DNA of 28,369 nt from Candidatus Iainarchaeum sp. (GTDB lineage: Archaea > Iainarchaeota > Iainarchaeia > Iainarchaeales > GCA-2688035). Made by a program: the position numbers and the translations under genes. This document shows, piece by piece, positions 3,123 to 18,153 of the stretch (positions within the stretch are counted from its first letter, which is position 1; each line of letters starts with the position of its first letter). The notes beneath the pieces were generated by a model. That model was not told where the DNA came from and ran no database searches. It saw only the letters and a list, made by a program, of their open reading frames with translations. Where the stretch lies: positions 1-28,369 of the forward strand of contig JAQTPU010000001.1 in the NCBI GenBank assembly GCA_028712575.1, in the 5' to 3' direction.

Positions 3123-3143
3123 TTTTTAATTGTTTTTATAAAT
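3123..3143 (+). repeat. 21-bp direct repeat, copy 1 (TTTTTAATTGTTTTTATAAAT), containing a TATA-like box
   Basis: Identical to 3313-3333; the two copies flank the 132-bp palindromic element. Confidence 0.85.
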
Positions 3144-3145
3144 CG

Positions 3146-3277
3146 GCCTTTTCTTGAAAAGAACATTGCAAACTTTGGGTTTGCGACATTGAAAAGCATT
3201 GCTTTCGATGCAACGCAAACTTTGTTTGCATTGTGCCTCACAAAGCTTTGCTTTGTAAGGAAGCCTTGGGAAAAGAA
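3146..3277 (+). repeat. 132-bp modular palindromic intergenic element (REP/MITE-like), long copy 1
   Basis: Base-for-base identical to 17946-18077; contains four tandem short hairpins. Confidence 0.92.
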
Positions 3278-3312
3278 CAATTTGCTGATGCAAACTGGCT
3301 GAAGGAATGCGC

Positions 3313-3333
3313 TTTTTAATTGTTTTTATAAAT
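3313..3333 (+). repeat. 21-bp direct repeat, copy 2; likely TATA region of the EamA gene
   Basis: Identical to 3123-3143; lies 10 nt upstream of the EamA ATG at 3344. Confidence 0.8.
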
Positions 3334-6927: not shown

Positions 6928-8034
6928 ATGCAGATACCGAATTTGACTCTTGCATATGCTGTTGCCGAATCCAGGCAGATAATTGAAACAAGCATGGTAA
7001 GGAAGGTTCAGGAGCTTGAAAACAACTGGTTAAAGGCAAAGCTCCATTCGAAGCAGGGCCAGAAAGACCTGATTATTGCGCCGCAGGCGCTCTTCCTGTC
7101 GGATTATTCCATTCCTGCAAAACAGTCCTCTTCCGGCTTCGGCGGTTTTTTGCGCAAGCACCTTGAAGGAAAAAAAATTTTAAAAATTTCACAGCAGGGC
7201 TTTGACAGGGTTGTTTTTCTGGAATTCCAGGACTTTTTCCTCATCCTCGAGCTTTTTGCAAAAGGCAACGTGATACTCGCGGACAAAAAAATGAAAATCC
7301 TCGGAGTCCTTCACAGGGAAGAATGGAAAGACAGGACACTGCAGAAAGGCTCCGATTACAAGGCATCGGGCTCAAAAGGCACTGACCCGTTAGACGCATC
7401 CCACGAATCATTTTTAAAATTCAGTTCTTCTGAATTTGAAATAGTAAAGGAACTTGTAAAAAATTTCAACATTGCGCCGGTTGTTGCCGAAGAGGCCCTG
7501 CTGGAATGCGGAATCCCGAAAGATGCGCCTGCAAAAAGCCTTTCACAGAAGCAATTCCTCCAGATTGCGGAAAAAATCCGGGAATTTTACACAATTGATT
7601 TGAAAAAAATCAAGCCTGTCATTGCGGAAAAAAATTCAGAACAGCTCATTCTGCCGTTTGAATTTGCTTCTGCAAAAACAACTGCGGGCTTCGGCTCCCT
7701 GCAGAACGCATTTGAAGAATTTTTTTCAAAGGAATTTTTCGGAAAAGAAGCAAAAAAAACAGGTTCCTCGCTTGAAAAAAAGCTTTCAGAATTCCAGAAA
7801 AGCCTTTCAAACCAGCTGGAGGCAAAAACCCGCCTCGGGGAAAAGGCAGCCCTCGATTCAAAAAAAGGCGAGGCGCTTTTTACGCATTACATTGAAGTGA
7901 AAAAGGCACTTGAAATTGCACGCGAAGCAAGGGGAAAGATAAGCGAAAAAGACATTATGTATAAGATGAGGATGTTTTCTTTTGTGAAGAGTGTTGATTC
8001 CAAAAAAAGCAGGTTAGTTGTAGAACTGGATTAA
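6928..8034 (+). CDS. NFACT/Rqc2 (aRqcH, FbpA-like) family protein, N-terminal half only
   Basis: GFDRVVFLEF and LILELFAKGNVILAD NFACT-N motifs, HhH region (NIAPVVAEEAL), first coiled coil. Ends at RLVVELD with no NFACT-R domain. Confidence 0.8.
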   Translation: MQIPNLTLAYAVAESRQIIETSMVRKVQELENNWLKAKLHSKQGQKDLIIAPQALFLSDYSIPAKQSSSGFGGFLRKHLEGKKILKISQQGFDRVVFLEFQDFFLILELFAKGNVILADKKMKILGVLHREEWKDRTLQKGSDYKASGSKGTDPLDASHESFLKFSSSEFEIVKELVKNFNIAPVVAEEALLECGIPKDAPAKSLSQKQFLQIAEKIREFYTIDLKKIKPVIAEKNSEQLILPFEFASAKTTAGFGSLQNAFEEFFSKEFFGKEAKKTGSSLEKKLSEFQKSLSNQLEAKTRLGEKAALDSKKGEALFTHYIEVKKALEIAREARGKISEKDIMYKMRMFSFVKSVDSKKSRLVVELD

Positions 8035-8107: not shown

Positions 8108-8166
8108 TTTTTCGCGTTAGCGAAAAACTTTCTTTCCCAAGGCTTTCTTTTCGAAAGAAAGGCTTT
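8108..8166 (+). repeat. Short member of the palindromic intergenic repeat family, between convergent genes (possible terminator)
   Basis: TTTTTCGC-GTTA-GCGAAAAA hairpin, then TTTCTTTCCCAAGGCTTTCTTT (22 bp shared with 9309-9330), then a CTTTCTTT-TCG-AAAGAAAG hairpin. Confidence 0.7.
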
Positions 8167-8452
8167 AGTCCGCTTCTGCGTTTGCCAATTCTCTTTCATC
8201 TACAATAAAAACATCGCTTACTGCAGTCACTGCAGAATATGGAATGTTCAGTGTCCTGCTTTTGCTGCCGAGCTTTCTTATTACCTTGCTGTCCCTGTCA
8301 AGCTCCACTATCAGGTAGATTATTTCCCCTGTGCGCTCGTCAACCATAAAATCAGCCAGCTTGCCGACTTCATCGCCCCTGTTTGTAATGACTCTCTTTG
8401 TAGCCAACTGCCTTGCAACAGTGTATTTGTACACAATTTCACCCCTTTTCAT
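8165..8452 (-). CDS. Stand-alone PRC-barrel domain protein (CdpB-like candidate)
   Basis: KRVITNRGDEVGKLADFMVDERTGEIIYLIV...IPYSAVTAVSDVFIV, a typical archaeal PRC-barrel pattern. Confidence 0.85.
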   Translation of the reverse strand: MKRGEIVYKYTVARQLATKRVITNRGDEVGKLADFMVDERTGEIIYLIVELDRDSKVIRKLGSKSRTLNIPYSAVTAVSDVFIVDERELANAEAD

Positions 8453-9272: not shown

Positions 9273-9345
9273 GAGCGAAGCGAACTACAATTTGCTGAAA
9301 GCAAATTGTTTCTTTCCCAAGGCTTTCTTTCCAAGAAAGGCTTTT
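9273..9345 (+). repeat. Short member of the palindromic intergenic repeat family
   Basis: GAGCGAAGCGA, ACAATTTGC-TGAAA-GCAAATTGT hairpin, then the 22-bp core at 9309-9330 identical to 8129-8150. Confidence 0.7.
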
Positions 9346-9436
9346 TTAAGCCTGTTTTTTCACATTTTTGTCTTGTTTTTAAGCCAGCAAAATAATCCTA
9401 AATAATAATTTAAATCGTATTGCCCCTATTGTGTGC

Positions 9437-10579
9437 ATGTCGAGAGCAAAGTTTTATAGTGAGGAAGAGCAACGTAAATTTTTTGCCTCTGCTAAGAAAT
9501 CTCTTAAGATGGGCAGCAGAAAGTTGTCAGTTATGTTGGGTTTGAAATCTCGCGGTGGTCTTGAGGGATATTCCTCGGCACGCACAGCCCCGCCTGTGGA
9601 AATAGTTAAAAAATTGGAAAAGCTGACCGGAGTAAAAGCCAATTATCAATTAGCAGGGAATAAAGTCTGTAATAAAAAAAGAGCTTTTTTGCCAATGGAT
9701 CCAGAACAAGCCCGAACTAATTTGAAGAAAGTATTTGGGAAAGACTTTTACTATTTGGAGACTTTGATAAAATCAGATTCTAGTATTACTGAAATAATTT
9801 CAAAACTTCGTGATAAGGAATATCATTTTGATAATTCCAACATTAGCCGCTGTATTGGTGCGTATAGAACAAATTTGTTGTCAAAAATAGTTGAAGAAAT
9901 TTCTGCAGGAGATAATGAAATTATTATTTCGGGCAGAGTGAGACAAGACAAAGGAACTTTGGCACTTACTTTTAACCTTCTTCTTTTGTATAAAATTTTG
10001 GCTCGCAAAGAGATTAGGGTGGGATTAGAGCTTGCGGTTAAAAGAGATAAAGTCAGGGTTTTTCCTCTTGAATTTGGCAGAAAGTTAATGCGTTCAAGCG
10101 GCGCGATAAAAATCTTGCTGACGGAAAAATCCGAGTTTTTGCCTAAATCAAAAATAAAGATAATTCTTAACCCTAAAAATTTTGGTTTCACTGATGTGGA
10201 AGCGATTTATGATTCTGATGCAAGAATTATTGCTAAACCATTACTGGAACAAGGTTTTATTTTGGACAAGAACAGGGGAACTCCTTTTAGCTTGAAAGGC
10301 GACCTTTCTTTGTATTTTCTGAATAAACATATCATTTTAGAAATAACCCGGGCAACTACATATCAAGCGGGCTATTTTAAAGTTGGCCAATGTTTTGTGC
10401 AGAATACTTGCTCGCCAGATTCACTGCAATTTTTGGTATGCCAAAGTTCGTTTTTAACAAAGGAGTGCATTAATGCTTTAAATAAAATTGGCGTCATAAT
10501 AATTGACACTTCGTTTGGGACGGGATGGGAAAAAGAAGTTGTTGGCAAGATAAAAAAGGTTGTTAAAAATGAATCCTAA
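9437..10579 (+). CDS. AT-rich protein with N-terminal Cro/Xre-like HTH and putative C-terminal PD-(D/E)XK nuclease domain
   Basis: RKLSVMLGLKSRGGLEGYSSARTAPPVEIVKKL (HTH-like). C-terminal GDLSLY..IILEIT....YFKVGQ resembles D...ExK motifs with a following GQ helix. Overlaps the taw1 start by 11 nt. Confidence 0.6.
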   Translation: MSRAKFYSEEEQRKFFASAKKSLKMGSRKLSVMLGLKSRGGLEGYSSARTAPPVEIVKKLEKLTGVKANYQLAGNKVCNKKRAFLPMDPEQARTNLKKVFGKDFYYLETLIKSDSSITEIISKLRDKEYHFDNSNISRCIGAYRTNLLSKIVEEISAGDNEIIISGRVRQDKGTLALTFNLLLLYKILARKEIRVGLELAVKRDKVRVFPLEFGRKLMRSSGAIKILLTEKSEFLPKSKIKIILNPKNFGFTDVEAIYDSDARIIAKPLLEQGFILDKNRGTPFSLKGDLSLYFLNKHIILEITRATTYQAGYFKVGQCFVQNTCSPDSLQFLVCQSSFLTKECINALNKIGVIIIDTSFGTGWEKEVVGKIKKVVKNES

Positions 10580-17945: not shown

Positions 17946-18077
17946 GCCTTTTCTTGAAAAGAACATTGCAAACTTTGGGTTTGCGACATTGAAAAGCATT
18001 GCTTTCGATGCAACGCAAACTTTGTTTGCATTGTGCCTCACAAAGCTTTGCTTTGTAAGGAAGCCTTGGGAAAAGAA
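17946..18077 (+). repeat. 132-bp modular palindromic intergenic element, long copy 2 (further hairpins extend to about 18155)
   Basis: Identical to 3146-3277 at an offset of exactly 14,800; followed by GCTTTTTGC-TAAA-GCAAAAAGC and GCTAACGCGAA..GCTTCGCT. Confidence 0.92.
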
Positions 18078-18153
18078 GCTTTTTGCTAAAGCAAAAAGCA
18101 TAGTCCTAAAAAGAAAAGTCTTTGGAAAAAAATTTGCTAACGCGAATGCTTCG

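Follow-up and report, generated by a model that had tools for sequence, protein, structure and literature searches.

A mosaic family of inserted repeats with a triplex-signature core in Iainarchaeia, found also in tRNA introns

The window analysed here, a stretch of 28,369 nt, comprises positions 1 to 28,369 of contig JAQTPU010000001.1 from a Candidatus Iainarchaeum sp. assembly (GCA_028712575.1), a MAG of 0.9 Mb in 130 contigs that is 78% complete and is called G000 below. Positions 3146-3277 and 17946-18077 hold the same 132-bp block (132 of 132 positions identical, 14,800 bp apart), and an exact match of this length cannot be due to chance. Both copies are intergenic according to the annotation of the flanking genes. 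Locus 1 lies in a divergent promoter region between a 126-aa ORF (minus strand) and an EamA transporter gene (plus strand), and locus 2 between two minus-strand genes, one for a DUF11-like and one for an AAA_18 kinase-like protein, the copy being antisense to either. Neither a tRNA gene nor an Rfam family at gathering score was found in searches of the whole window. The block folds stably as RNA (-48.1 kcal/mol, z -4.8 against shuffles), and the locus 1 insert (~170 nt) folded as DNA gives z -2.7. An ORF resembling HTH/nuclease proteins (9431-10579), situated beside a short member of the family, was considered as a transposase and rejected, being single copy in the genome with no Pfam family and no sign of a transposase. 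Gene calls in G000 are ORF-based and crude, and contexts scored as 'inside CDS' are mostly spurious ORFs running across repeats.

An assembly or binning artefact would be one way to obtain such a duplicate in a MAG this fragmented, and assembly-graph contigs do break inside the repeat. We judge this very improbable. Logan contigs from two landfill-metagenome runs, which may include the source sample of the MAG, pass at 3146, 3277 and 17946 from unique sequence into the element, spanning three of the four flank/element junctions, and their breaks fall only inside the repeat. The flanks and terminal hairpins of the two loci differ, and family members occur in ~30 independent assemblies. All runs listed for this stretch derive from landfill-metagenome DNA, none from RNA. 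Among the joints listed for metagenome contigs on the window, which drop rare variants, no population empty-site allele was seen.

The pair is not alone in the genome. A third copy with 99% identity is present at G000:C34:567-696, together with many partial or modular relatives, and the block, far from being a stand-alone element, is one composite member of a family of mosaic repeats (Table 1). The original prediction, made from the letters of the window, had correctly described the identical pair, its intergenic placement and the chain of four hairpins. It had also pointed out conserved ends; these are real, but they are in fact the two parts of a core with a triplex signature, overlooked at the time, which is split by the hairpin cassette. 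The alternative then offered, a structured ncRNA gene, is unlikely given the varying orientation to neighbouring genes and the lack of an Rfam match.

Table 1. Features of the family members in the window.
Feature	Position	Strand	Evidence or remark
Left 21-bp target-site duplication copy, with a TATA-like box inside	3123..3143	.	Identical to 3313-3333; one copy only at the corresponding site of G002 and G003
Locus 1 insertion, 169 bp (2 nt, 132-nt block, terminal hairpin, 15-nt tail)	3144..3312	+	Not present in G002:C12 or G003:C32; both junctions crossed by metagenome contigs
Pyrimidine tract Y of the core, 5' arm of the L hairpin	3146..3155	+	Alignment A3 (43 cores): Watson-Crick covariation with R1, triad covariation with R2
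R1a, first half of purine tract R1, separated from the second half by the cassette	3159..3163	+	Seen against short cores that lack the interruption
Cassette of four REP-like imperfect hairpins, M1-M4	3164..3260	+	Hairpin family comparison
M1 and M2, inverted orientation	3164-3187, 3187-3210	+	Cassette sub-parts
M3 and M4, direct orientation	3211-3233, 3236-3260	+	Cassette sub-parts
Second half of R1 (AAGCC), 2-nt linker, GGG, mirror purine tract R2	3261..3277	+	Mirror relation, triad covariation
Terminal hairpin, locus 1	3278..3297	+	Differs from its counterparts in the two remaining 132-nt copies
Variable 3' tail of the locus 1 insertion	3298..3312	+	Similar, by eye only, to the tRNA-Arg(TCT) intron 3' end
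Right 21-bp target-site duplication copy	3313..3333	.	Identical to 3123-3143
Locus 2 copy of the 132-nt block, sub-parts as in locus 1 at +14,800	17946..18077	+	Orthologous spacers G001:C18 and G003:C4 without the block
Locus 2 terminal hairpin (18078-18099), then a degenerate element tail as far as the AAA_18 stop codon	18078..18160	+	~210 bp in G000 replace ~19 bp in G001
Short cassette-free member, TTTC class, beginning at the stop codon of a PRC-barrel gene	8111..8164	-	nhmmer E 6e-6
Short member, TTTC class, antisense between two plus-strand genes	9289..9342	-	nhmmer E 4e-8; row of alignment A3

The cassette hairpins are imperfect palindromes. Their C.A (or T.G) mismatch is invariant and their outer pairs show compensatory changes, as seen in 28 distinct copies from several genomes, and adjacent inverted pairs recur at the loci L004, L010, L059 and L213. 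The modular make-up is evident from two-hairpin versions of the block that lack exactly 47 nt, corresponding to M2 and M3. The near-complete identity of the three 132-nt blocks ends precisely at the core ends, and the adjoining terminal hairpins all differ, a pattern that points to conversion from copy to copy and not to fresh transposition of the whole unit.

The core that encloses the cassette measures 38 nt in its uninterrupted form. Its order is a pyrimidine tract, a loop and a complementary purine tract, joined by a short linker to a further purine tract that mirrors the first. In both window copies the 97-nt hairpin cassette splits the first purine tract. Mirror mismatches number 0-1 in most of the 59 distinct cores parsed. 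Across the three tracts, 171 of the 172 variable cells are T-A-A or C-G-G, a score that none of 10,000 shuffles reached, and one class of cores (CTC / GAG / mirror GAG) is not accounted for by any alternative Watson-Crick helix. As the covarying copies are related by descent, the triad evidence amounts to some three or four independent changes. Compensatory changes are also found across the family in the L helix and the terminal hairpin, the latter with four pair types at three positions, and the 2-nt linker pairs in most copies with the 2 nt preceding Y, with the combinations AA/TT, AG/CT, CA/TG and GA/TC; locus 1 is an exception (CG against TT). The arrangement is the signature of a fold-back purine-motif triple helix, which may form in ssDNA, or of H-DNA in duplex. 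At the sequence level the core shows the three-tract feature of intrastrand purine-motif triplex repeats of the PIT, BoxC or TMECO type. The loops are ~3-9 nt and ~5 nt in the short cores, compared with 1-6 nt in the ITxF definition. Triplexes of the purine motif are weak when A-rich.

Members of the family are numerous. The core was matched 56 times by nhmmer in the 0.9 Mb of G000 (E<=1e-3), and 15-48 family matches were found in each of the sister genomes. An exact 30-base core pattern recovered 97 stretches in ~30 Iainarchaeia/DPANN MAGs, where ~1e-5 would be expected by chance. Among the better matches, core identity between species is 88-98%, compared with 66-76% for the flanking genes.

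Insertion of the elements into DNA is accompanied by long target duplications that vary in length; the one at locus 1 measures 21 bp, and those found elsewhere range from 12 to 39 bp. The locus 1 insertion is absent from two sister species, where the flanking genes align on both sides (G002:C12 and G003:C32) and the 21-bp target sequence is present once at the orthologous site (alignment A1). The orthologous spacers of locus 2 likewise lack the block. No target duplication was detected at locus 2 or around the C34 copy. Other copies in G000 are flanked by duplications of 15, 23 and 39 bp, and of ~35 bp in two cases; exact duplications of 28 and 12 bp occur in G003 and G005, which extend to ~40 and 18-25 bp when mismatches are allowed, and those in other MAGs measure 17, 18, 23, 24 and 26 bp. 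The insertions have a fixed 5' end, at the pyrimidine tract, and a variable 3' tail. At the start of the L24e ribosomal protein gene in G000 and G003, the duplicated target is identical within each genome and different between the species, and at L152 one site was hit twice. These targets hint at site specificity, which a passive model of insertion does not predict.

More than half of the cores in G000 are associated with tRNA genes: 29 of 56 lie within or at most 300 nt from one, in a genome of which tRNA genes cover 1.7%. The same core adjoins tRNA ends, both 3' and 5', and giant canonical tRNA introns begin with it. Eight tRNA genes of G000 carry such introns, 84-205 nt long and at the canonical position. 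In each of the eight, the element begins exactly at the 5' splice site, an agreement for which selection alone is not an easy explanation. No target duplication surrounds the intron copies. For tRNA-Arg (TCT), tRNA-Pro (GGG) and tRNA-Leu (CAA), constrained folds and pairing by hand predict a 4-bp helix with bulges between bases of the anticodon loop and the intron 3' end. The window copies themselves are not archaeal bulge-helix-bulge (BHB) tRNA introns, as neither lies inside a tRNA gene; the eight other members in G000 do. The contribution of the family to tRNA introns had escaped the original prediction. RtcB is present, and EndA was found in 19 of 22 relatives and not in G000, a MAG of 78% completeness.

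The tRNA-Arg(TCT) gene is intronless in 10 relatives. Its intron in G018, which has four intronless congeners, looks at first like a clean gain, but the intron of genus g1 has the same short 3' motif; the two introns could be homologous, in which case a common origin followed by losses is possible. Side by side in the single genome G000 are free insertions with duplications and with sites that are empty in sister species, insertions that duplicate the ends of tRNA genes, and the eight canonical tRNA introns.

Several known systems share part of these properties. In E. coli and other bacteria, BoxC and PIT elements are triplex repeats of the intrastrand purine-motif type (Hoyne et al. 2000, as cited in Holder et al. 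2015, PMC4666352), and with TMECO they represent non-coding bacterial repeats tied to genome instability (PMC4666352). They resemble the Iainarchaeia family in having a pyrimidine tract, loop, purine tract, loop and mirror purine tract on one strand, and in being dispersed, intergenic and non-coding, with local genome rearrangement and no known mobilising enzyme. The bacterial repeats are rich in G/C, the archaeal family in A/T (T-A-A triads plus one or two C-G-G). The latter also differs in its concentration within introns and at the ends of tRNAs, in its covarying terminal hairpin, in its long target duplications and in tracts that can harbour hairpin cassettes. For TMECO the triplex has been demonstrated (PMC4666352); the Iainarchaeia core is known here from sequence covariation.

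The hairpins resemble REP/BIME/REPIN sequences, with which they share short imperfect palindromes, a conserved mismatch, inverted doublets and a mosaic intergenic assembly. They differ in their archaeal host, in being nested inside another repeat, in the long target duplications and in that no single-copy RAYT flanked by hairpins was found. The REP/REPIN-like reading of the block therefore stands as far as the palindromes, the invariant mismatch and the doublets are concerned, but lacks its hairpin-flanked Y1 gene. That the block belongs to a mobile, non-autonomous element is supported, the family being dispersed, non-coding and inserted, with empty sites in sister species at both window loci and the 21-bp duplication at locus 1. 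The MITE-like version of this idea fits poorly. MITEs, archaeal ones included, are also small, non-autonomous, multi-copy and insertion-polymorphic among relatives, with target duplications, but theirs are fixed and short, in contrast to the 12-39 bp seen here, and the Iainarchaeia elements have no terminal inverted repeats and no parent IS, one end being fixed and the other variable. SINE-type target-primed retroposons are similarly non-coding, with one defined end and long variable target duplications; in the Iainarchaeia family, however, no reverse transcriptase was found in 23 genomes, the 3' end is not A-rich and the structural signature is DNA-specific.

Transposed or duplicated BHB tRNA introns are known from Thermoproteales (reviewed in PMC4090602), and a mobile-element model of tRNA gene disruption has been put forward (Sugahara et al. 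2012, PMC3293823). In common with these, the Iainarchaeia family has related sequences in the introns of many tRNA genes and duplicated tRNA gene fragments beside insertions. What sets it apart is that the shared sequence is not confined to tRNA genes but is found elsewhere as true insertions with target duplications, and that the element measures 40-170 bp without a recombinase, compared with the 1.8-kb Caldiarchaeum element, which encodes one.

Neither RVT_1 reverse transcriptase nor Cas1/casposase was found in the 23 family genomes. A search for TnpB also found none. All of these were searches of incomplete MAGs. The mechanism preferred in the original prediction, in which REPIN-like elements are mobilised as ssDNA by a HUH/Y1 (IS200/RAYT-type) transposase acting on imperfect hairpins, draws on the REP-like mismatch and inverted doublets of the M hairpins and on the presence of Y1_Tnp genes in 12 of 23 family genomes, with one full-length copy in each of the three congeners. 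The sole Y1 remnant of G000 even adjoins an inverted hairpin doublet and a core, but it is only a 67-aa stub that is cut off by an element rather than flanked by elements. In the relatives, no M hairpins lie within 1.5 kb of 11 Y1 loci; the Y1 genes of G001 and G002 are alike only over the ~650-bp gene and are not syntenic, and five element-bearing genomes, all 72-81% complete, have no detected Y1. Y1 transposition (IS200/IS605, RAYT) is not known to make a target duplication, in contrast to the 12-39 bp duplications observed. With no linked Y1 gene, we regard this mechanism as improbable. An RNA-mediated, SINE-like spread, in which excised tRNA-intron RNAs are copied back into DNA at nicks and the reverse route seeds introns, appears equally improbable. 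It would agree with the fixed 5' end at the splice site of the eight introns, the variable 3' tails, among them the intron-like tail of locus 1, the presence of RtcB and EndA, and long target duplications of variable length, which are typical of target-primed insertion. It is at odds with the negative search for RVT_1 in the 23 genomes, with copies in both orientations relative to transcription and with intron copies that have no target duplication; in addition, the triad covariation suggests a triplex of the purine motif, a type that RNA reportedly does not form (PMC4666352).

Slightly less probable again is that the repeats are cis-acting functional modules under selection that spread by duplication only, serving as bidirectional terminators, stabilisers of transcript ends or modules for processing or folding of pre-tRNA. 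T-tracts occur on both strands of the core, which often begins directly at a stop codon or a tRNA 3' end or shortly downstream of one, and the 88-98% conservation between species whose genes are ~73% identical would suit such a role, as would compensatory changes that keep the helices, also between the orthologous introns of G000/G002 and G001. Elements in tandem, convergent and divergent spacers show no skew to convergent or tandem ones, and on these grounds a terminator role was rejected; a terminator within tRNA introns would do harm. The promoter and antisense settings of the two window copies, their absence from sister species without any replacement and the target duplications, which indicate insertion, also stand against this explanation.

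The explanation we favour, with a probability of roughly 60%, is that the 132-bp pair belongs to a family of dispersed, non-coding, mosaic DNA repeats of Iainarchaeia (DPANN archaea), built from the 38-nt core with its triplex signature and REP-like imperfect hairpins, which are inserted, moved by the host and also form tRNA introns. The element would encode nothing and be moved in trans by host functions, most likely as ssDNA taken up where replication or transcription complexes stall, for instance on promoters and tRNA genes. In that case the duplicated segment would correspond to a displaced flap or to a stagger the size of a protein footprint. The near-identical blocks are best accounted for by recent conversion or cassette transfer between resident copies, with the core ends as homology. 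Copies landing after tRNA position 37 would persist since they could be removed by the splicing endonuclease. We offer only tentatively the stronger proposal that the family is the vehicle of tRNA intron gain in these archaea, a DNA element without protein that is recognised through its fold-back triple helix and hairpins, is inserted by host replication or repair at stalled promoter or tRNA-gene complexes with footprint-sized duplications, and yields a spliceable bulge-helix-bulge intron after position 37. If true, this would make the family a new class of mobile DNA that is driven by structure, and would explain the arrival of archaeal tRNA introns in concrete terms.

On the practical side, the repeats break DPANN assemblies, cause standard callers to miss tRNA genes and give rise to spurious ORFs. 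The three-way covariation would be evolutionary evidence, rare for any organism, of an intramolecular triple helix under selection, and by this evidence the bacterial BoxC/PIT phenomenon may be extended to archaea. The Iainarchaeia family bears on the origin of archaeal tRNA introns, a question that it makes directly testable within one lineage.

The two 132-nt blocks of the window are identical at 132/132 nt, 14,800 bp apart, and the four hairpins described for them in the original prediction are present. Both copies lie between ordinary protein genes, in keeping with the intergenic position noted there. The duplication is not an assembly artefact: Logan contigs from two landfill-metagenome runs connect unique flank to the repeat at 3146, 3277 and 17946, with breaks solely inside the repeat, so the junctions are real. 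The organism itself was detected in landfill metagenomes. The block folds better than shuffled sequence (z -4.8 as RNA; z -2.7 for the whole 170-nt insert as DNA); no tRNA genes were found in the window, and no Rfam family matched across it.

A mobile element had been suspected, and both loci are indeed empty in sister species. The genes flanking locus 1 align on both sides with orthologous sites in G002 (C12) and G003 (C32) at ~67-74% identity; the 21 bp bracketing the insertion in the window occur there once and the intervening 169 bp are absent. Locus 1 is thus an insertion with an empty site in relatives and a target duplication. The duplicated 21 bp contain a TATA-like box, so each of the divergent genes keeps one. 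The locus 2 block is absent from G003 (C4) and from a third sister species, G001 (C18), with ~210 bp in the window's own MAG (G000) versus ~19 bp in G001, and no target duplication is visible at this locus.

The window feature is a composite member of an archaeal repeat family, joining a BoxC-like, putatively triplex-forming core and REP-like hairpins. Beyond the two window copies, the host assembly (a 0.9 Mb MAG of 130 contigs, 78% complete) holds a third 132-nt copy, 99% identical, on contig C34, and many shorter relatives that share with the block its ends alone or just some hairpins. Most frequent is a short core of ~38 nt with a terminal hairpin after it; a profile made from 11 such cores matched 56 core copies in G000 at E<=1e-3, including two in the window. 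Long forms consist of the short core plus a cassette of two or four hairpins (M1-M4 in the window block), nested at one fixed point in the first purine tract of the core, and the four-hairpin version is longer than the two-hairpin version by 47 nt, corresponding to M2 and M3. For several short cores (window 8165-8167; C108, C37, C28, C93), the start coincides or overlaps with the TAA stop codon of the gene upstream, and the element's first A's can be read as part of that codon. A second conserved motif in G000, approximately GTAAGTT, one variable base, CC and an A-rich purine run, adjoins T/A-tract hairpins; it also lies within the tRNA-Ser(GGA) intron, and motif and hairpins occur immediately 5' or 3' of several tRNA genes. 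This motif may be another module of the family.

In an alignment of 43 distinct cores from six genomes, two leading nucleotides pair with two linker nucleotides (AA/TT, AG/CT, CA/TG and GA/TC are all observed). Then come GCC; a pyrimidine tract, loop, complementary purine tract and second GCC, which together form a helix carrying a conserved C.C mismatch; the linker, then GGG; and another purine tract, the reverse of the first and not its complement. The cores fall into four classes (pyrimidine tract/first purine/second purine): TTTTCTT/AAGAAAA/AAAAGAA, TTTCTTT/AAAGAAA/AAAGAAA, TTTTCTC/GAGAAAA/AAAAGAG and all-T/all-A/all-A. At variable columns the three tracts read T-A-A or C-G-G in 171/172 cells (reached by 0/10,000 shuffles), a count that, given the shared descent of the covarying cores, rests on only ~three or four independent changes. 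Copying yields direct or inverted repeats, never mirror repeats, and the mirror relation must therefore be selected. Watson-Crick pairing of the pyrimidine tract with the last tract, as an alternative, would account for two of the classes, but fails for the CTC/GAG class and for the count of trailing A's. The core geometry is, as judged from sequence, that of a putative fold-back purine-motif triple helix. Bacterial BoxC/PIT/TMECO repeats have the same layout, with triplex formation and genome instability demonstrated (PMC4666352). Purine-motif triplexes are reported not to form in RNA (PMC4666352), in which case DNA would be where the selected structure forms.

Several genomes contain the M4-type hairpin, of which 28 distinct versions were found; a C.A mismatch three pairs above the base is invariant, and three other pairs show compensatory changes. 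Window M1 and M2 are the same type inverted, with the mismatch seen as T.G, while M3 and M4 are direct; inverted doublets of neighbouring M-type hairpins are common. The predicted likeness to REP/REPIN sequences thus holds for the hairpins, in their imperfect palindromes as in their inverted doublets. G001 holds the same four-hairpin cassette (87-90% identical) between quite different ends, showing that cassette and core are separable modules; one G001 copy has extra hairpins nested within the M4 loop. The identity of the three 132-nt blocks runs precisely from one core end to the other. Beyond it, each of the three copies has a different terminal hairpin, and otherwise identical two-hairpin copies on C110 and C37 also have unlike terminal hairpins. 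Since a whole transposing unit would bring its terminal hairpin along, we infer that resident copies recently underwent conversion or passed cassettes to one another, the core ends (18 and 17 nt) serving as homology.

Direct repeats flank further elements (see the table), and many of them duplicate a TATA-like piece of a promoter, a gene start or a tRNA end. The element's pyrimidine-tract end lies 0-8 nt from the left repeat in every case, and 0-4 nt in all but one; the opposite end is a variable tail. The start of an L24e-like gene is filled in both G000 and G003, with target copies identical within each genome and different between genomes. There, the upstream target copy opens a 35-codon frame across the element that ends at the start codon of the real gene. 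At L152, a locus in another MAG, two different tandem elements are accompanied by three copies of one 23-24-bp target, reflecting either two hits on the same site or unequal exchange. Together, the L24e and L152 sites suggest site preference or concerted evolution. On C55 of G000, three consecutive copies of the tRNA-Ser promoter and 5' end are each followed by an element, and only the last runs into a complete tRNA-Ser(GGA) gene, whose 205-nt intron holds two cores; the array looks like repeated insertion with ~35-bp duplications. On C66, the last ~16 nt of tRNA-Arg(GCG) recur ~80 nt downstream, past an insert ending in a T/A-tract hairpin, and are a duplicated tRNA 3' end.

Positions of repeat-family features and associated genes (G000 unless another genome is named)
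Feature	Position	Strand	Description
132-nt block, locus 1	window 3146-3277		between 126-aa ORF and EamA transporter, divergent
Insertion, locus 1	window 3144-3312		169 bp
Target duplication, locus 1	window 3123-3143, 3313-3333		21 bp
132-nt block, locus 2	window 17946-18077		between DUF11-like and AAA_18 proteins, antisense to both
Short core	window 8111-8164	minus	profile match
Short core	window 9289-9342	minus	profile match
GTAAGTT-type motif	C81:1938-2010, C81:4698-4770, C14:2300-2345, C66:5383-5460		
Y1 stub	C52:3290-3620 (L059:1380-1704)		67 aa, N-terminal
Flanking repeat	C27		15 bp; intergenic, TATA-like
Flanking repeat	C104		23 bp; gene start
Flanking repeat	C42:2960-3110 (L030)		39 bp; ribosome-binding site and first nine codons, ribosomal protein L24e-like gene
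Flanking repeat (twice)	C55		~35 bp; promoter and 5' end of tRNA-Ser
tRNA-Ser array	C55:2590-3150		
tRNA-Arg(GCG) 3'-end repeat	C66:2046-2150		
Flanking repeat	G003:C75 (L124:1450-1620)		28 bp exact, ~40 with mismatches; same L24e-like gene start
Flanking repeat	G005		12 bp exact, 18-25 with mismatches; intergenic
Flanking repeats	other Iainarchaeia MAGs		17, 18, 23, 24, 26 bp; several TATA-like or tRNA ends
Tandem elements	L152 (JAGVNX010000025.1), ~7770-7940	minus	
Intronless tRNA-Arg(TCT)	G003:C6:4597-4671 (L104)		
Intron-containing relative	G003:C67:20789-20969 (L074)		close relative of the above

The element is mobile at the DNA level. The original reading as a mobile REP/REPIN-like element stands as regards insertion and hairpins, and falters on the tentatively proposed HUH Y1 transposase. 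Y1 (IS200-type) genes occur in 12/23 family genomes; in G000 the only one is a stub whose frame stops where an inverted element begins and which shares 73% identity with ordinary IS200-type genes in two relatives. M hairpins were found near none of the relatives' Y1 genes (0/11 loci), and those of G001 and G002 lack synteny. Y1 enzymes are not known to make target duplications. Nothing links the Y1 genes to the element, and we rejected them as its mobiliser. The element at the stub consists of a core and two inverted M hairpins; the remainder of the gene is missing, and a prolyl-tRNA synthetase gene comes next.

The fixed-length staggered cuts of a DDE enzyme or casposase are at odds with duplications of 12-39 bp. 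Searches found no Cas1 in the 23 family genomes and no TnpB in G000. An RNA route, in which an excised intron is copied back into DNA, would explain why one end is fixed, at the splice site, and why the tails vary, but it lacks a reverse transcriptase (none in 23 family genomes) and fits poorly with a purine-motif triplex. With these enzymes unfound, unlinked or unfit, a host-mediated route is left over, and the mechanism is probably host-driven. One end of the insertions is fixed and the other varies, the duplications are long and differ in length, promoters, gene starts and tRNA genes are preferred, and the structural signature is DNA-specific. Our best guess, which this pattern fits, is that the host captures a structured single strand where replication or transcription complexes have stalled. 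In that case the duplication would represent either a displaced flap or the DNA occupied by the stalled complex.

Across ~30 MAGs, 97 stretches carry the exact 30-base core pattern (chance expectation ~1e-5); nearly all are labelled Iainarchaeum, Micrarchaeota or unclassified archaeon, and the complete genome GW2011_AR10 is among them. A BLAST search of the 40 nearest relatives with the 132-nt block gave matches in 12/22 genomes of the same family and 1/18 from other families of the order. A literature search found no published description, and the family is an undescribed one; its nearest published kinds are BoxC/PIT/TMECO (PMC4666352), REP/BIME, the transposed tRNA introns of Thermoproteales (reviewed in PMC4090602) and the mobile-element model of tRNA gene disruption (PMC3293823).

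tRNA genes make up 1.7% of the G000 genome, and 29/56 cores lie in or <=300 nt from them, directly 3' of seven tRNAs and inverted 5' of four. ARAGORN identified eight tRNA genes with 84-205-nt introns in the anticodon loop (Ser-GCT, Leu-TAA, Arg-TCT, Ser-GGA, Arg-GCG, Leu-CAA, Pro-GGG and one on C125, a doubtful call). By hand and constrained folds, the intron follows position 37 in most. The core starts right at the 5' splice site in 7/8 introns and lies inside the C125 intron; M1- and M4-type hairpins are present as well in the Pro-GGG intron. In the folds, the intron 3' end pairs with anticodon-loop bases (4 bp between bulges) and the first core bases pair just upstream of that helix, a predicted bulge-helix-bulge-like arrangement. 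RtcB is present in G000; the EndA catalytic domain was not found in this 78%-complete MAG, and an EndA-type protein of ~170-190 aa occurs in 19/22 relatives, including all three congeners. Only ~21-25 tRNA genes were detected in the assembly; many contig ends fall at repeats, which probably means that assembly of the tRNA regions is incomplete.

The tRNA-Arg(TCT) intron pattern shows turnover. In G000, G001 and G002 the intron is 95-97 nt long and contains the core; ten relatives, including four congeners of G018, are intronless; G018 has a 47-nt intron consisting of the bare core and 9 nt; and G030, from another family, has an intron with a core-like start. G003 has an intronless Arg-TCT gene and a very similar tRNA gene with an intron (Arg-CCT by its anticodon loop, miscalled Phe by ARAGORN); the pair may reflect paralogy, strain heterogeneity or a mixed bin. 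Between G001 and G000/G002, the orthologous introns show coordinated changes in the helix and all three tracts. The introns of G018 and of genus g1 share a short 3' motif, so the turnover may reflect either repeated gain or one gain with many losses. The repeat family is closely tied to tRNA introns, and it is conceivable, if rather unlikely, that it serves as a vehicle of tRNA intron gain.
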